From contig CAVOFT010000001.1 in the NCBI GenBank assembly GCA_963695095.1, positions 2,560,001-2,624,000 on the forward strand: a DNA stretch of 64,000 nucleotides. Direction: 5' to 3'. Source of the stretch: an uncultured bacterium (GTDB taxonomy: Bacteria > Krumholzibacteriota > Krumholzibacteriia > JACNKJ01). Shown here in pieces: positions 42,001-48,000 of this stretch; the first letter of the stretch is position 1; each line of letters starts with the position of its first letter. Position numbers: made by a program.

Positions 42001-45000
42001 GCGCGCCCTGGAGGAGGCGAAGCAGGGTGGTCTTGCCGGCGCCGTTGCGCCCCAGCAGGCAGATGCGCTCGCCGCGCTCGATCTGCAGCTGGACGCCGTC
42101 AAGGAGGAGCGGCCCGCCCAGGGCGAGGGAGACGTGCTTGAGGTCGACGAGGGCCATGGCGGCAGAAGGTAGAGCAGCGCGCCGGACGGGGCAAGCGACC
42201 CCTCGGGTGGAATGTAGCCGGCACCGCAGTCCAGCCGCTTGCGGACGCTGCGCTCGCGGCACTCGCCAATGCAGCCCTCAACGAAGCAGGAGCAGCTTCT
42301 GGTTCGCCTGCAGGCCCGCACCCTCCAGCCGCGCGAGGTAGAGCCCCGTTGGCTGCGCGCGGCCGCTGTCATCCTCGCCGCGCCAGATCAGCTCGTGGTG
42401 CCCTGCGCCGCGGGCCTCGTCGAGCAAGGTCGCGACGCGCCGCCCCGCCGCATCGTGGATGCTCAAGCGCACCCACGCGCCCTCGACGAGCGTGAAGCTC
42501 AGCGTGCTGGCCGGATTGGCCGGATTCGGCCAGGGCGCTTCCAGCCGCAGCCTTGCCGCCGCGAGCGACGGGGCCGCCACCGCGTTCGGCAGGCCAATGA
42601 ACAGGTGCACCAGGCCCTGGTTCGAGCCGACGAGCAGATCCTGGCGGCCATCCCCGTCCCAGTCCCAGGCGAAGGGGCGGGACCGGCCCTGGTCGCCGAG
42701 GTCGATGGGCTGGCTGAGGCTCTCGCAGTGCCCGCCCGCGCCGAAGGCCGGCGCCGCGTGGCTGCCGAGATTGCGATAGAAGTACAGCTCGCCTTCGGAG
42801 TTGCCGCAGATGAGATCCTTGGCGCCGTCGCCGTCGAAATCGGCCACGGAGGGACTCGAATAGCCCAGCGGCACGACGAGCTGGCCGTCGCCGTCCGCGA
42901 TGTAGAGCGTGTGCCGGAAGTCCGGCGGCAGGCCGCCGCCCTCGTTGTAGTAGAGGCGCAGCTTGCCGTCGATGGAGCCCACGAGCAGGTCGAAGCGGCC
43001 GTCCTCGTTCCAGTCCACGATGCAGGGGGTTGCCCGGCCACCCACCGAGATGTCGAACTTGCCTCCGGACGGCCCCACCTGCACGCGGGCGCCGGTGTCG
43101 AAGAGCGGCGCCTCGGCCGTGCCCACGTTGAGGTGGATGTAGACGAAGCCGTCGCTCGTGCCCAGGATCAGATCGGGGAGTTCATCGTCGTTCCACCGCG
43201 CGACGCGCGGCGCCAGGCCCAGGCATCAGCCGCCGGGGTAGTTCAGTTCCCCGGCCGTGGTCTGGAGAAAGCTGAAGTCGCCGAAGCTCGGCGGTCCCGC
43301 CAGACCCTCATTGAGGTAGAGGCGCACCTTGCCGGGGATGAGCCCGCTCCCCTCGCCGACGAGCAGGTCGACGAAGCCGTCGCCATCGAGATCCGCGAGG
43401 CAGGGCACCGAGTGACCGTCGACGATGAGCGTCTCGCCGTGGGCGGGCAGGTCCTGCTCGGCAGCAAACTGGATGAAAGCCGCTGCGGGAGCGGCTGCCA
43501 CCAGGACTGCCAGCGTCAGGAGTGCACGAACTCCAATCATTCCTCAGCCTCCTTTCGCCGATCCGCCGATCGACCGACCGAGTATAGCATCTGACGAATG
43601 GCTGAGGCTTCCCCAGGTTCAGAAATGTGCTAGACTGCCTGGCGGGGATGGCGGACCGGCGCTTGCAGCCCCGGGTCCGCCGCGGAGGGGAAGCCGATGC
43701 GCGAGAGGCTGCTGCTTGGTCTGCTCTGGCTGGTCGCCGCGACGGCGGCCCTCGCCCAGGCCCCGCTCCCCTCTGCCCTGCTCGACGCGCCGCTGGCCCG
43801 CCTCGGCCATGCCGACAGGGCCAGCCTGCGCGAATTCCTGGGCCCCGATTCGACCCTCGTCCTGATTCTCTGGAACACGGACTGTCCCGATTGTCTCGAG
43901 AATGTCGCCGAGGCCGGAGCCCTCGCGGCCACGCTCCCCTCGCTCCGCGTGCTCGGGGTGATGGACGACGCCGATCCCTGGGATGCGCTGGCTTTCGCCG
44001 AAGCGCGCGGCCTCGACTTCCCGAACCTCCACGATCCCGGCGGGCTCTTCGCCACCGCCCTCGGCACCGAGGGCAGCAGCTTCTCCTTCGCCCTGCTGGA
44101 TGGCGCTGGCGGCCTGCTCGCGCTCGCCGTCGACAAGCAGCCCGATGCGGCCGCCGCCCTTCGCGCCGCGCTGGCCGCCCTGCCCGCTGCGGCGCCGGTC
44201 GGAACCGCGCCCAGACCGGGCGAAGCTGCGGCGCAGGCGCCCGCGGCCGCACACTTCCCGCTCGTGAGCGGCAGCGGGCAACTCCGTCTCGCCGCCCTGG
44301 CCGTGGGCCTCGAGGACCGCCTTGGCGAGGGCCCCTGCCCTGGCGAGCCCGCGCTCTGCGCCTGCAGCCTGGGCGGCGCCTACGGAGAGGACCTGCGGCC
44401 GCTGGCCGATGTCCTCTTCCGGCTGCGCTACGAGCTCGTCGCCCAGCTCTCGCCCCGCCTGCGCGCCGGCGCCTTCCTGCGCCTCAGCAACGAGCCCGTC
44501 GCGCTGCTCGCCCAGGGCCCCGAGTACCTCTCGAGCGAGCGCGGCAGCGCCTTCGCGGAGTATGCGACCGGCGCCTGGTCGGCGCGCCTGGGCTGGACGG
44601 CCCTGCACTTCAGTCCGCTCACCCTCCAGCGCTGGGACTTCGCGGACAATCCGCCCGTCGCCGGCACCGGCGGGGCCGGCGGCTGCGGCGCTTGCGGCGC
44701 CACCAGCCACGCCCTGGCGCTCGAGGCCCTGGACGAGCTGGGCCCCGAGCTCACGGTCGAGGGCCTGCGCCTGCAGGGCTCACCGCGTCCCTGGCTGAGC
44801 GCCACCCTCGCCTATGCCCGCCCGCGCCGCGCGCAGGCCTTCGACGCCAATGCCGATCCACCCTTCGCCTATCGCCAGGATCTGCTCGCGGGCCGGCTCG
44901 CGCTGCGGCCCCCGCTGGGCCGCGGCCGGCGCGCGACGCTCGCGCTCCACTACGTCGCCGCCAACGAGGACGGCGGCTCCGCGCGCTGGCCGCTCTACGC

Positions 45001-48000
45001 GGGCGACGCGCGCAGCTTCGTCCGCCATGGCGAGGTCTACGGCGCGCTGCTCACCGCCCCCTTGCCCGGCGGCCTCGAACTCGAGCAGGAGGCCACGCGC
45101 AGCACGACGCGCGTGGACCGCATCGACGCTCGCGGCGAGGCCGTCGAGGACTGGGCCTATCGCGGCGAGCTGAGGGCCGCGCTGCCGGGCTCGCTGCATC
45201 TCGCCGCCGCCCGGCTGCGTCTGGGCCCGGACTATGGCGGCGAGTACCGCGCGCTCTCCTACCTGCCCAACACGGAGGGCTGGCGCTTCGCCGCCGGCAT
45301 GCGCAGAGAACGCTGGGGACTGGCCCTCTTTCACAAGCGGCTGACGCGCTGCGAAGGGCCCGAGCTGGGCACGAGCCTGGCCGAAGCGCGCAGCAGCGGG
45401 GTTCTGCTCAGCCTCGTCCCCGGGGCCGGCAGCGGACTCGAGCTGGGCGGCACCTGGATTCGCGAGCGGCTCGAAGGCGCAGCCCTCATCGGCGACTGCC
45501 GCTGCGCGCGCGATTGCGACAAGCGCATCCTCACGCTGGCCGGGCATCACGGCCTGGGCCCGCGCACCCGGCTCAGCCTCGAGCTGAGCCGGATCGACAG
45601 CGAGGACGGCAGGGGCGGCGAGGCCGAGTCCGATCTGGCCCGCCTCCTGCTCTCGACGGCGTTCTGAGCGCGGCCTGCCCACCGGCCGGCTGCGCCTGGA
45701 CAGGGAGGTGAAGGCGATGACAGCGCGCATCGGCATGGCGGTCCTGGCCTTGGCCCTCGCGGCGAGTCCGCTTGGCGCCGATCAGGATCCCAGCGACCCG
45801 CAGCTCATCAGGATCGAAGGCGAGACCTTCGTGGCCAGCCACAACACCGGTGGCTTCAACATCGGGGTGGCCTTCTGCGGGAGTGCCAGCGGCTACTACG
45901 TGGCCGACGGCATCGATCAGCCCGGCGAGTGGATCGAGCTGGCCCTGACGCTCCCCGCGAACACGATCTACACGGCGCGCCTGGCGGTGCAGGGCTGGCC
46001 GGGCGAATTCAACATCCTGCAGCTCGAGTTCCTCCCCGCCGCGGGCGCTGGTTCACGCTCGAGCACGGAGTTCCGATTCACGGGCATCGGGGTGGGCTGC
46101 GATGTGCCCTACCTCTGGGTCGCGGGCGAGCTGCCGCTCTGCGCGAGCGCCGGCAGTTACCGGGCGCGCATCAGCCTGACGAGCGGCACGCTCGCGCGCA
46201 TCGACCTGCTGGAACTGAGCTACGAGAACACGCCGACGGCCGCGCACTCCTGGAGTCGCATCAAGTCGCTCTATCCCTAGTGGATGAGCCCTCGGCCGCG
46301 CGGGCCCGGCCGCACGGCATCAGGCGACCGGCAGCGCCTGCAGCAGCAGCACGCTGCGATCGCCCACGCGATAGCTGCCGCCCGGCAGCGCGGGCGCGGC
46401 GGCCGGCAGGCGCAGGTCCTCGCCGGGCGCGAGGCTGGTGTCGAGCACGCGGTGCCAGGCGCGCCCGGGCGGCGGCGGCGGCAGCTCGAAGTCCAGCGGC
46501 TCCGTCCAGGCGTTCAGGCACAGGTGCACCCACTCGCCCTCGCCGGGCCGGCTCAGCGTGCAGGCCAGGCTCGAGGAGCTGGCGGTCCAGTCCGGCGTGC
46601 CCAGCTTGACCCCGTGCCACTGCAGCAGCGTGCCGCCGGCGCCGTCCTCGCGCCAGAAGCGCTCGTCCTTGAAGATGGCCAGGGCGCGGATGTAGGCGGC
46701 GAGATCGCGGACGAAGCCGTGCAGGGCGCAGCGGGCCGCCAGGGGCGACCAGTCCAGCCAGGCCAGCGCGTTGTCCTGGCAGTAGACGTTGTTGTTGCCC
46801 TGCTGGCTGCGGCCCAGCTCGTCGCCCATCGAAAGCATCGGCGCGCCCTGGGCGATGAGCAGCAGGGCCAGGAAGTTGCGCTGCTGCCGCGCGCGCAGGG
46901 CGAGCAGGCGCGCGTCGTCGGTCGGTCCCTCGACGCCGTAGTTGGCGCTGTAGTTGTCGTCCGAGCCGTCGCGGTTGTCCTCGCCGTTCGCCTCGTTGTG
47001 CTTCTGGGCGTAGCTGACCAGATCGGCCAGCGTGAAGCCGTCGTGGCAGGTGACGAAGTTGATGCTGCGGTTGGCCTCCAGCGCCGGGTTCGCGTAGAGG
47101 TCCGGGCTGCCGGCCAGGCGCAGGGCGACCGCGGGCACCAGCCCCTCATCCCCGCGCAGGAAGCGGCGCAGGTCGTCGCGGAAGGGGCCGTTCCACTCGG
47201 CGAAGCGCTCGCCGGTGAAGGAGCCCACCTGGTAGAGGCCCGCCGCGTCCCAGGCCTCGGCGATCAGCTTGCTGCCGGCCAGCACCGGGTCCGAGTCGAT
47301 GGACCACAGGATGGGCGCGTTCTCGCGCGGCTTGCCCTTGCCGTCGCGGCTGAGCACCGAGGCGAGGTCGAAGCGGAAGCCGTCCACGTGCATCTCGGCC
47401 ACCCAGTAGCGCAGGCAGTCGAGGATGAGATGCCGCATCACCGAGTGGTTGGCGTTGACCGTGTTGCCGCAGCCCGTGAAGTTCGCGTAGCGCGAGGGCT
47501 CCTCGCCCGCGATGTAGTAGGCGCCGTTGTCCAGCCCCTTGAAGGAGAGCGTGGGGCCGCGCTCGTCGCCCTCGGCCGTGTGGTTGAAGACGACATCGAG
47601 GATCACCTCGATACCGGCCCTGTGCAGGGCCTTGACCATGTCGCGAAACTCGTCCACCGGTCCCAGCGGGTCGCGCCGCGAGCTGTAGGGACCGTGCGGG
47701 GCGAAGAAGGCCAGCGGACTGTAGCCCCAGTAGTTCACCCTCCCCAGCGGCGCGTCCAGAGGATCGAAGTGCTGGACGGGCAGGAGCTCCACCGCCGTGA
47801 CCCCGAGGTCCACGAGGTAGGGGATCTTCTCGATGAGGCCGGCATAGCTGCCGCGCAGGGCGGGCGCCAGGCCCGAGCTCTCGTGGCGCGTGAAGCCCCC
47901 CACGTGCAGCTCGTAGATGAGCGTCTCGCCATAGGGCCGGCACAGCGGCCGGTCGCCCTCCCAGTCGTAGTCCCGCGTGTCCACCACCACCGAGCGCAGC

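Follow-up and report, generated by a model that had tools for sequence, protein, structure and literature searches.

A TlpA-like thioredoxin domain fused to a predicted outer-membrane beta-barrel and linked to a selenoprotein gene in Krumholzibacteriota

Thioredoxin-fold proteins of the TlpA, ResA, CcmG (DsbE), and Mpt53 group are exported, carry a CxxC active site behind a conserved Trp, and are soluble or anchored by a lipid or an inner-membrane helix. Because oxidising as well as reducing members of the TlpA-like group have CPxC active sites, this motif is compatible with electron flow in either direction. In DsbD, CcdA, and ScsB, a thioredoxin-fold domain is coupled to a Cys pair in a membrane domain, and reducing power crosses the membrane to clients. 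In a 64,000-nucleotide stretch of a Krumholzibacteriota genome (the window, numbered here from its first letter), we analysed a gene whose product shares the fold, the Trp-CxxC arrangement, and the export of the TlpA-like proteins but carries the domain on an outer-membrane beta-barrel instead. As for those proteins, CcdA/DsbD genes are present in the same genome (two DsbD_TM genes above the Pfam cut-off) and in related operons. The fusion protein would follow the same logic as DsbD, CcdA, and ScsB but has no homology to them, since DsbD_TM is an alpha-helical domain of the inner membrane. In the titles and abstract openings of the literature searched, no member of the TlpA/DsbE family is reported as fused to an outer-membrane barrel.

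The positions that an earlier note had given for three open reading frames, an FG-GAP gene on the minus strand and the fusion and CBM-like genes on the plus strand, were confirmed (Table 1), as was its description of a TlpA-like thioredoxin/outer-membrane barrel fusion, an architecture that is real and conserved. Both motifs that it had named are present in the fusion protein, as W59-N-T-D-C63-P-D-C66 and G324-GAGGC330GAC333G, and its list of 13 database homologues was reproduced, with 12 of 558 to 667 aa and one of 452 aa. We found the barrel part in 45 of 208 Krumholzibacteriota genomes, and the barrel family as a whole is small, with 135 representatives across several FCB-type candidate phyla.

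Table 1. Features of the fusion locus (window positions)
Feature	Position	Strand	Basis
FG-GAP selenoprotein gene, 420 aa; UGA 43226-43228, U105-C106	42278..43540	-	TGA in the same place in 6/6 orthologues
C-terminal sorting-type domain of the FG-GAP protein, about 100 aa (aa ~320-420)	42281-42583	-	
Divergent intergenic region between FG-GAP and fusion genes, 156 nt	43541..43696	.	
Fusion gene, 656 aa: signal peptide, TlpA/DsbE-like thioredoxin domain, linker, outer-membrane beta-barrel	43697..45667	+	ORF, Pfam, AF2 models
Signal peptide, aa 1-21 (MRER, then a hydrophobic core, then ALA|Q)	43697..43759	+	Read from the sequence by eye
Thioredoxin-fold domain, aa 22-165; active site C63-P-D-C66 at 43883-43894	43760..44191	+	Invariant Cys, structural matches
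Ala/Pro-rich linker, about aa 160-188	44174..44260	+	pLDDT <50 in both models; length varies in alignment A1
Beta-barrel, aa 189-656; 20 DSSP strand segments; C-terminal Phe	44261..45664	+	Models, structural matches
Loop L3 between strands 5 and 6, aa 304-351 (48 residues); Cys codons 44684-44686 and 44693-44695	44606..44749	+	Invariant columns
CBM-like secreted protein, Cys paralogue, 190 aa; C131 at 46098-46100, tag W182-Y189 at 46251-46274	45708..46280	+	

The sequence similarity of the thioredoxin domain to known families is marginal, at 26.9 bits in Pfam, where the cut-off is 26. The only Pfam matches of the protein, AhpC-TSA (5e-6) and Redoxin (1.1e-5), cover aa 40 to 140, and its nearest solved structure by sequence is Mpt53 (E 0.0045). 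The structural matches are to DsbE (3gl3, Z 16.6), Mpt53 (1lu4, Z 16.5), ResA (Z 16.1), CcmG (Z 15.1), and TlpA (Z 13.9), with rmsd values of 2.2 to 2.5 Å across 131 to 136 residues, and to Bcp/Prx structures (Z 15 to 16.8). The last of these, with AhpC-TSA as the top Pfam match, would suit a peroxiredoxin-type antioxidant at the outer membrane. We regard this reading as highly improbable: a conserved Trp precedes the CxxC dithiol of the active site (WxxxCxxC), the arrangement of TlpA, ResA, and CcmG; the peroxiredoxin motif, PxxxT/SxxC, is absent from the fusion protein; and the Cys pair of the barrel would be left unexplained.

The barrel part (aa 186 to 656) has no match among Pfam or NCBIfam models. 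In the two AF2 models (pLDDT 72.5 and 81.3), it most resembles 18-strand channels of the OprD/Occ, AlgE, and Campylobacter MOMP types, with about 307 to 321 residues aligned (VIA matches OpdQ, Z 19.5; OccD2, 18.1; MOMP, 18.0; and AlgE, 16.7; Foldseek match AlgE, E 4e-10). It shares with them a long loop after strand 5, where their constriction loop L3 lies, and differs from them in its low sequence identity (8 to 12%). Neither a conserved L3 Cys pair nor a redox domain at the N terminus is known from any of these channels. An 18-strand barrel, as proposed earlier, agrees with the best solved matches but not with the 20 strand segments that DSSP assigns in both models, and we put the predicted size at 18 to 20 strands. 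The models fit a standard outer-membrane topology, with an even strand count, long loops that alternate with turns of 2 to 5 residues, and a C-terminal Phe; the terminal residue is F or Y in 32 full-length relatives, which were chosen by that criterion. With this topology the thioredoxin domain would be periplasmic, and, together with pLDDT values below 50 around the L3 Cys pair in both models (aa 323 to 348 in one), it gives no support to the earlier proposal of a relay that reaches the cell surface. Since L3 joins strands 5 and 6, it would lie within the pore.

Across these 32 relatives, with identity to the window's protein down to 23%, only two Cys pairs are invariant. The active-site residues C63 and C66 are present in 32 of 32 sequences. 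The L3 pair is likewise kept in all 32, as CxxC in 9 and CxC in 23, and also in 21 of 21 shorter forms; CC spacing occurs as well. Thus, the insert described earlier as an invariant CxxC does have an invariant Cys pair, but its spacing varies and is CxxC only in the f1-like group. L3 is the best-conserved stretch of the whole protein (TPLTLQRWDxxDNP...GG-C330-GA-C333-G...LEALDELGP). Two further pairs, C221/C223 and C601/C607, are unconserved beyond family f1. The variable spacing of the L3 pair would suit ligand binding and redox chemistry equally well.

The CBM-like gene starts 40 nt downstream of the fusion gene, behind an AGGGAG Shine-Dalgarno-like site. Its product has no match in Pfam or NCBIfam; in the ESM Atlas it lies near CBM_6/35 clusters at 0.83 to 0.84, which we take as a lead only. 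Counting outward from fusion loci, the reverse of the earlier count from CBM loci, we found a CBM-like gene within 750 nt in 32 of 35 assessable Krumholzibacteriota loci, a stronger adjacency than had been stated, although kin are not independent and much of this figure is inherited synteny in two or three clades. The exceptions are L064, L076, and L066, where the gene is 4.9 kb away. The CBM-like gene is co-directional in f1-type loci and convergent in others, with different outer flanks; the link is strong and survives inversion of the CBM-like gene between families.

In 30 of 32 loci, the CBM-like gene contains a single in-frame TGA at one aligned GxGU site, where paralogues have Cys; in the window's protein, the residue aligned with Sec is C131, not C130. 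A hairpin 17 to 20 nt past the TGA is 75% paired, with a covariation of 0.445, compared to 0.22 in shuffles (0 of 500 reach 0.445) and 0.09 to 0.16 in slid controls. The window's genome has tRNA-Sec and SelB, and it carries the Sec form of the gene 1.37 Mb away. On these sequence features, which are also those of known prokaryotic selenoproteins (UGA opposite the Cys of paralogues, a downstream hairpin, and tRNA-Sec with SelB in the genome), the CBM-like partner in Krumholzibacteriota is a selenoprotein. We found no paper that contains both "Krumholzibacteriota" and "selenocysteine," and a 2026 review of prokaryotic selenoproteins (PMC13188914), its text searched by term, has neither "FG-GAP" nor "carbohydrate."

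The divergent FG-GAP gene has a lone in-frame TGA at aa 105, in the context YPGG-U-CLG, and about 150 ORFs of the window's genome share its C-terminal domain. It adjoins the fusion gene in six loci, all of family f1 (the window, L039, L041, L042, L043, and L046), and is absent from beside it in the f1 loci L044 and L047, where upstream sequence is present, and in every locus of other families. Therefore, of the three-gene module proposed earlier, the CBM-like link stands, while the FG-GAP gene is a partner in one family and not in general.

We also read 33 loci from outside the Krumholzibacteriota set. The thioredoxin domain is fused to the barrel in about 12 of them, and in about 12 a separate TlpA-like gene lies directly upstream, as in L099, where a 28-nt gap precedes a barrel with its own signal peptide (P0048). 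In 9 fused Eisenbacteria-type loci, a thioredoxin gene of the classical WCxPC kind is divergently adjacent as well. Seven of the 33 are WOR-3/Stahlbacteria-type loci, and in five of these (L128, L136, L139, L144, and L159) genes for ArsR, DsbD_TM (CcdA), and an ArsP_1 permease surround the barrel gene and a thioredoxin-domain protein is encoded downstream of it; a CarboxypepD_reg protein adjoins the barrel in all of these except L136. The remaining two are an incomplete locus (L157) and one with the thioredoxin gene only (L161). In other phyla, the neighbouring gene usually specifies a secreted protein with a CxC motif, and the conserved Cys pair takes several forms: CHC or CVC in 5 of 5 CarboxypepD_reg proteins, SCxCL in 8 of 8 DUF1573 proteins, and WCGC in 3 of 3 beta-helix-like proteins. 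The separate thioredoxin and barrel genes, and CcdA with an additional thioredoxin, support a thiol relay that draws on the cytoplasmic side.

Taken together, our tentative best reading, with a probability of about 0.42, is a putative dithiol relay, fed from the periplasm, that leads to the Cys pair of the pore loop and serves Cys/Sec client proteins, and to this extent the thiol/selenol relay of the earlier note is partly supported. The TlpA/DsbE-type domain would be tethered by the flexible linker to the periplasmic end of the barrel, whose redox-active Cys pair would sit on the strand 5-strand 6 loop, the site of the pore-constricting L3 of porins. Electrons would pass from cytoplasmic thioredoxin through inner-membrane CcdA/DsbD to the CxxC of the tethered domain and on to the loop pair, and the loop pair would reduce, or exchange with, the Cys/Sec motif in the secreted beta-sandwich product of the neighbouring gene, its client. 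This client would be the CBM-like protein with Sec in its GxGU motif in Krumholzibacteriota and, in the window's genus, its Cys paralogue, with the U-C selenoprotein of the FG-GAP type possibly a further client. Against this reading count the variable spacing of the loop pair, the ArsR and ArsP_1 genes of the neighbourhoods, the three loci in which no CBM-like gene is adjacent, the shared ancestry behind much of the linkage, and the distance of 1.37 Mb to the Sec form in the window's genome.

A doubtful but possible alternative shares the step from thioredoxin to loop but gives the pair another task after it. The barrel would be a channel, lined with thiols, that admits a thiophilic metalloid or a chalcogen (for instance As(III)/Sb(III), Hg, Cu(I), polysulfide, or selenite/selenotrisulfide); the loop pair would bind or select, the thioredoxin domain would keep the pair reduced or reduce the bound species, and the Cys/Sec neighbours would bind that species or take it over. 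Metalloid handling is suggested by ArsR-family genes, which adjoin the barrel divergently in 17 of 41 Krumholzibacteriota loci and lie beside it in 6 of 7 WOR-3/Stahlbacteria-type loci (same strand and upstream in L128, L136, L139, and L144; downstream in L157 and L159), and by the ArsP_1 (PF03773) permease in five of the latter. RND pump genes (ACR_tran and OEP), just upstream in L106, L124, and L132, also favour a channel. The best solved matches of the regulator, HlyU, BigR, NolR, and SqrR (E about 1e-11), include two persulfide sensors, BigR and SqrR; ArsR-family similarity leaves the effector unnamed, however, since SmtB scores only about 100-fold worse and the regulator's Cys lies one helical turn off the BigR/SqrR Cys in the alignments. 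Tolerance of CxxC, CxC, and CC spacing resembles metal-binding pairs, and the Gly-rich flanks (GGAGGCGxCG) would make a flexible arm; MerP/MerT, ArsD/ArsA, the vicinal Cys of ArsP, and the GGCGG arm of SoxY have comparable variable-spacing pairs or Gly-flanked Cys, and the WOR-3 operons share ArsR-family control and a PF03773 permease with such thiophilic Cys hand-off systems. None of those proteins, however, has sequence or fold kinship to the barrel, and none is an outer-membrane barrel. The selenoprotein genes alongside would suit selenium acquisition. Against a channel of this kind, neither the barrel nor the CBM-like protein matches a known metal-binding family in Pfam or NCBIfam, and the flanks, as far as annotated, hold no core genes for resistance to arsenic, mercury, or copper (arsB/acr3, arsC, merA, copA).

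There are two further readings. In one, which we consider unlikely, the loop pair forms a structural disulfide, the fused or adjacent thioredoxin is a dedicated in-cis folding catalyst (oxidase or isomerase) that acts once, as the barrel is assembled, and the Cys/Sec genes are syntenic passengers. This would accord with the match to Mpt53, which is described as an oxidase-type DsbE, with the frequency of CPxC in oxidising family members, and with outer-membrane proteins such as LptD that have essential disulfides. A single structural disulfide leaves unexplained the top conservation of the 48-residue L3, CcdA (a component of reductive pathways) in five WOR-3/Stahlbacteria-type loci, and the regular CxC/Sec motif in the next gene, and CxC and CC disulfides are strained and as a rule reactive, not structural. 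In the other, the barrel docks or exports proteins that end in W-[GS]-x-[IV]-K-x-L-Y. The tag stands at the C terminus of CBM-like proteins and of an unrelated convergent barrel neighbour in three Eisenbacteria loci, and 29 of 38 six-frame occurrences in the window's genome are no more than 3 residues from a stop codon. Genomes contain one barrel gene and 13 to 77 tagged genes each, a ratio that argues neither for nor against sorting. Three f1 genomes (95 to 99% complete) lack a barrel match yet have many tags (G008, 26; G017, 20; G016, with a thioredoxin-only match, 13), and the tag is missing from WOR-3 and Poribacteria-type barrel neighbours, which makes such a sorting or anchoring device very unlikely.

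With a thioredoxin-type domain at the inner end of its barrel, a conserved Cys pair in the longest loop, and a small secreted selenoprotein as its almost constant neighbour, the fusion protein may be the first example of a thiol-redox component built into the outer membrane of a bacterium.

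All three ORFs that the earlier note had placed side by side in the window, those of the FG-GAP selenoprotein, the thioredoxin-barrel fusion and the Cys paralogue of the CBM-like selenoprotein, were found at its positions. The genome also has a tRNA-Sec, the Sec form of the CBM-like gene and, above cut-off, SelB and two DsbD_TM genes. Elsewhere in the window, a two-gene unit is tandemly duplicated upstream of an ABC-F ATPase gene, with copies 62 to 70% identical; neither of its ORFs has an above-cut-off Pfam match, and a sorting-domain match follows its upstream copy. ARAGORN also called a tRNA of undetermined type in this genome. 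A search of sequencing runs gave no RNA data and one DNA run with a word share of 0.06.

Features in the window, elsewhere in its genome (contig C1) and in related loci (L numbers)
Feature	Position	Strand	Remarks
Duplicated two-gene unit	window 36001-37390 and 39073-40237	-	125-aa and 273-aa ORFs
FG-GAP selenoprotein gene	window 42278-43540	-	single 420-aa product when TGA is read as U; U105 in NYPGG-U-CLG
FG-GAP protein, C-terminal domain	window 42281-42583	-	~100 residues
Fusion gene	window 43697-45667	+	656 aa
CBM-like gene	window 45708-46280	+	190 aa; starts 40 nt past the fusion gene, AGGGAG site ahead
C-terminal tag	window 46251-46274		W-[GS]-x-[IV]-K-x-L-Y, then stop
Further examples of the tag	C1:122482, 313269, 2529282-2530828, 3507226-3508220		
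tRNA, undetermined type	C1:736525-736612	-	four-base anticodon (gcat)
CBM-like gene, Sec form	C1:1235238-1235777		
tRNA-Sec	C1:1473424-1473521		anticodon tca
ArsR-family regulator gene	L067:6107-6454	-	also in 16 other Krumholzibacteriota loci
ArsR-family regulator gene	L139:4845-5177		
CBM-like gene with second TGA	L058:8836-9282	-	...SSS-U-GLIKAIY
Thioredoxin-profile match	L132:12701-13084	+	one in-frame TGA
Barrel match in several frames	L046 (G013) 6216-7564		
Barrel match in several frames	L077 (G069) 6706-8081		

The fusion protein opens with a signal peptide, read by eye from the sequence (MRER, a hydrophobic core, ALA|Q). Residues 40 to 140 match the Pfam AhpC-TSA model (E = 5e-6; 26.9 bits, cut-off 26) and fall just short of the cut-off for Redoxin (25.7 versus 26.6 bits), while relatives reach higher scores, up to 56 bits. 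Among solved structures, Mpt53 is the closest in sequence (E = 0.0045). As modelled, this domain has a thioredoxin fold with TlpA/ResA-type additions, and its closest structures are those of DsbE, Mpt53, ResA, DsbF, CcmG and TlpA (Z, 13.9 to 16.6), with VIA Z scores of 16.6 for 3gl3, 16.5 for 1lu4, 16.1 for 2f9s, 15.1 for 1kng and 13.9 for 1jfu over 131 to 136 residues (rmsd, 2.2 to 2.5 Å) and a Foldseek TM score of 0.81 to 3gl3; Bcp-type peroxiredoxins score alike. Peroxiredoxins hold the peroxidatic Cys in a PxxxT/SxxC motif. Here the site reads WNTDCPDC, with Thr at position -2 and no upstream Pro, so that an AhpC/Bcp identity was rejected, and the WxxxCxxC active site fits the TlpA type rather than the peroxiredoxin type.

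Two AlphaFold models, one built with 13 sequences (pLDDT, 72.5; pTM, 0.66) and one of the mature protein with 40 sequences (pLDDT, 81.3; pTM, 0.77), agree on a thioredoxin-fold domain, a disordered Ala/Pro linker at about residues 160 to 188, and 20 strand segments, joined in alternation by turns of 2 to 5 residues and by loops that reach 48 residues. The signal peptide, the even number of antiparallel strands and the pattern of long loops and short turns are those of an outer-membrane barrel, and the protein ends in the terminal Phe of a beta-signal (...LSTAF). Across the phylum, we drew from 41 loci a set of 32 full-length genes (ORFs of at least 600 aa with a terminal F or Y) that are 23 to 57% identical to the window's protein; the last residue is F or Y throughout this set, which was itself chosen by that criterion. 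In the alignment of 13 close homologues, which was not chosen by C-terminal residue, F is the last residue in 12 of 13; the other protein is partial.

The solved structures nearest the barrel are 18-strand channels (OpdQ, Z = 19.5; OccD2, 18.1; MOMP, 18.0; AlgE, 16.7), and Foldseek aligned it to AlgE with an E value of 4e-10. Residues 186 to 656 gave zero Pfam or NCBIfam matches at E values up to 1. We therefore rejected membership in OprD/Occ, AlgE or another named porin family, for which there is no sequence-family match, the likeness being one of fold alone. Because the strand count is even, the two ends of the barrel share one side of the membrane. Short turns of outer-membrane proteins are usually periplasmic, and long loops lie outside or fold into the pore; by this rule, the thioredoxin domain is probably periplasmic.

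Four Cys pairs appear conserved among the 13 close homologues. In the set of 32, the only invariant Cys residues are the active-site pair C63/C66, kept in 32 of 32 sequences, and C330/C333, which sit in the 48-residue loop between strands 5 and 6. This loop (residues 304 to 351), which presumably stands where porins and OprD-type channels have their constriction loop L3, is the best-conserved stretch of the fusion (TPLTLxRWDxxDNP...GG..C..C...ESLEELGP); the region of the pair has a pLDDT below 50 in both models. The earlier note had described an invariant CxxC in this insert. The Cys pair is indeed invariant (32 of 32), but its spacing varies, with CxxC in 9 sequences and CxC (GCGCG) in 23. 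We discarded C221/C223 and C601/C607 as extra relay stations, since neither pair is conserved outside the window's family, f1.

We searched 208 genomes of the phylum with a whole-protein profile, which matched 68; by our own reading of the match table, 45 hold the barrel part and the other 23 match in the thioredoxin part only. Genomes with the barrel part number 9 of 12 in f1 (window's genome included), 1 of 1 in f4, 27 of 43 in f5, 3 of 8 in f6, 1 of 91 in f7, 1 of 23 in f8 and 3 of 13 in f9. A barrel-only profile found just 135 matches among 1.84 billion representative proteins, and Pfam applied to 53 of these returned AhpC-TSA/Redoxin for 30, no match for 22 and a weak DUF2490 match for 1. 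Twenty-one shorter forms (453 to 606 aa) mostly have, by eye, a hydrophobic, signal-peptide-like N-terminus, followed in several by a coiled-coil-like segment; a few, P0028, P0071 and P0108 among them, are apparently cut at the N-terminus. The two loop Cys are kept in all 21 (CxxC in 15, CxC in 5, CC in 1). A genome scan with the shorter forms yielded 63 loci, whose named records include Eisenbacteria, Latescibacterota, Gemmatimonadota, Poribacteria, WOR-3, Stahlbacteria, Zixibacteria, Chitinivibrionia and Krumholzibacteriota. Naturally occurring variants, whether split, fused or barrel-only, span at least eight candidate phyla. Barrel matches in L046, L077 and L158 are spread over two or three reading frames, either through assembly errors or because the copies are frameshifted or decaying.

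We read 33 loci outside the Krumholzibacteriota set; several counts of the whole analysis come from ORF maps of GC-rich DNA that we interpreted ourselves. In about 12 of the 33, a separate TlpA-like gene lies directly upstream of the barrel gene (28 nt away in L099; with two thioredoxin domains in L104 and L109), and in about 12 the two are fused; L105 begins at a contig end, which places its upstream side outside the assessment. Nine fused, Eisenbacteria-type loci have an adjoining, divergent gene for a classical WCxPC thioredoxin. Seven of the 33 loci are of WOR-3/Stahlbacteria type. Five of them (L128, L136, L139, L144 and L159) have genes for ArsR, a CcdA-type DsbD_TM protein and an ArsP_1 permease around the barrel, in differing order, and a thioredoxin-domain protein downstream, with a CarboxypepD_reg protein adjoining the barrel in 4; L161 has a thioredoxin gene only, and L157 is cut short. 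Of all arguments that thioredoxin and barrel may work together, this range of split, fused and operonic arrangements is the strongest. The CcdA genes in barrel loci point to the reductive direction, and this context, with the DsbD_TM genes of the window's genome, points to CcdA/DsbD as putative reductant of the fused thioredoxin.

In other phyla, the product of the gene next to the barrel is secreted and has a conserved Cys pair: CHC/CVC in CarboxypepD_reg proteins (5 of 5), SCxCL in DUF1573 proteins (8 of 8) and WCGC in beta-helix-like proteins (3 of 3). The SCxC motif may be common to DUF1573 generally. Long DUF1573 forms have added glutaredoxin-like stretches; a CcdA-like membrane C-terminus was considered for them and dropped, as no Pfam match of that kind was present. 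In L132, whose layout resembles the Eisenbacteria loci, the thioredoxin-profile match with its in-frame TGA, which lies some 5 kb downstream of the barrel, may encode a Sec-containing thioredoxin-like protein.

Within Krumholzibacteriota, we scanned 41 loci, those of the window and of 40 further genomes, with purpose-built profiles, covering as much as 7 kb to either side of the fusion gene; tblastn with a single query overlooked the CBM-like gene at several loci, and a profile built from the first matches recovered it. Six loci stop at or inside the barrel and were left out. In 32 of the 35 assessable loci, which are kin and represent few independent events, the CBM-like gene lies within 750 nt of the fusion gene. 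It lies 6 to 167 nt beyond the fusion's 3' end in 31 of the 32 and is upstream in L047; in L066 it is 4.9 kb away, and from the stretches scanned in L064 and L076 it is absent. The CBM-like gene is co-directional in f1-type loci and convergent elsewhere, and the outer flanks also differ by family (FG-GAP in f1 versus ArsR, gltX and ilvC in f5); the two genes have thus remained neighbours despite rearrangement.

The adjacency to the Sec form of the CBM-like gene that the earlier note had reported is borne out by these loci: 30 of the 32 have a copy with a single in-frame TGA, always at the same aligned position (GxGxG-U). Cys forms alone are present just in the window, where the aligned residue is C131, and in L042, of the same genus; second CBM-like copies also have Cys at this site. 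The UGA thus corresponds to a Cys in homologues and conservation extends past it, as in a selenoprotein. A SECIS-type hairpin of 7 pairs follows 17 to 20 nt past the UGA (29 sequences), with 75.3% of cells paired and a covariation of 0.445, compared to 0.22 in shuffles (0 of 500 reach the observed value) and 0.09 to 0.16 in slid controls. An earlier register was abandoned (35.5% paired, no better than shuffles); a slide of +2 indicated the right one.

The CBM-like protein has no Pfam or NCBIfam match. In the ESM Atlas it scored 0.83 to 0.84 against CBM_6/35 clusters, under the 0.9 level for a lead, and its top matches are unnamed clusters; the label is a lead only. The gene in L058 has its second TGA where the Trp (TGG) of the C-terminal tag is expected; a true stop, an error of sequencing or a further site of recoding could each account for it. 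The tag itself recurs genome-wide, within 3 residues of a stop codon in 29 of 38 six-frame occurrences, often with T-T-A-x-E ahead and in about half with a Cys 11 to 14 residues upstream. Its DNA pattern has 13 to 77 matches in each of the 12 f1 genomes and 0 to 10 in most other families. The tag has the look of a signal for sorting or anchoring that is as yet undescribed. A role of the barrel as its general sorter is weakened, because tags are abundant in G008, G016 and G017, genomes with no barrel match.

The FG-GAP protein has FG-GAP repeats and a C-terminal domain that matches FlgD_ig and, weakly, T9SS sorting-domain models. Its orthologues flank the fusion gene in f1 only (the window, L039, L041, L042, L043 and L046), and all 6 have a TGA at YPGG-U-C, the UGA/Cys pattern of a selenoprotein. 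The gene is absent from the f1 loci L044 and L047, both with upstream sequence; L040 stops short of its position and is uncounted. A hairpin is present in the window's gene, with a fold energy no better than shuffles (z = +1.05). The C-terminal domain recurs at the C-terminus of ~150 ORFs in this 3.6-Mb genome; since so many share it, it looks like a secretion-sorting domain, with a very large predicted cargo set, and the FG-GAP selenoprotein is probably exported.

We propose that the tethered periplasmic thioredoxin domain, fed by CcdA/DsbD, would keep or cycle the Cys pair on the pore loop of the barrel, a step that we consider probable, and that the loop pair would then serve the Cys/Sec client encoded next door. 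To the whole chain, from CcdA/DsbD through the thioredoxin domain and the loop pair to the neighbouring client, we give a probability of about 0.4. Its main competitor shares the thioredoxin-to-loop step and makes the pair the binding site of a thiophilic metalloid or chalcogen channel. Such a channel suits the presence of ArsR regulators, an ArsP permease and RND pump neighbours as well as the varying spacing of the Cys, and we rate it as rather unlikely. ArsR-family genes lie divergently upstream of the barrel in 17 of the 41 loci, and their products have a single Cys in helix 2 (LCxGE) as well as a pair, ICxxxC, close to the C-terminus. Solved matches of the barrel-side regulator are best for HlyU, BigR, NolR and SqrR (E about 1e-11), followed by SmtB (1e-9), which leaves its effector unnamed; its signal may be persulfide or redox state and not a metal. 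It is improbable that the loop pair is only a structural disulfide served by its own folding catalyst, because this accounts for neither the extreme L3 conservation, nor CcdA, nor the recurring Cys/Sec neighbours.

The proposed relay admits a bolder form, a "DsbD of the outer membrane," in which the Gly-rich pore-arm pair would be reachable from both faces, be recharged by its own periplasmic thioredoxin and relay reducing equivalents or bound S/Se to or from surface Cys/Sec proteins; we hold this to be doubtful. The likeness to DsbD would be one of logic only, and identity as a DsbD-type membrane electron transporter was rejected, the fusion having no match to DsbD_TM, the helical domain whose two Cys are essential in such transporters. 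DsbD/CcdA brings reducing power into the periplasm, and we know of no component that moves it into or across the outer membrane.

We found no description of a thioredoxin/outer-membrane-barrel fusion in the literature, as judged by titles and abstract openings, and no paper in the literature search that pairs Krumholzibacteriota with selenocysteine; selenoprotein together with FG-GAP gave unrelated papers only. A term search of the text of a 2026 review of prokaryotic selenoproteins (PMC13188914) gave 0 hits for FG-GAP and 0 for carbohydrate, and a listing there under other names is possible. The CBM-like (GxGU) and FG-GAP (U-C) proteins are apparently two unlisted selenoprotein families, with SECIS covariation supporting the former, and the barrel adds an outer-membrane family that has no existing models. 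The fusion family is a compact, concrete test object, with a single barrel gene, a defined candidate client and two Cys pairs that are invariant. If the pair is a binding site, the barrel would represent a novel type of outer-membrane channel, gated by thiols and serving metalloids, sulfur or selenium. If instead it acts as a "DsbD of the outer membrane," it would be the first transmembrane thiol/selenol relay in an outer membrane, and such a relay would account for surface selenoproteins staying active outside the cell.
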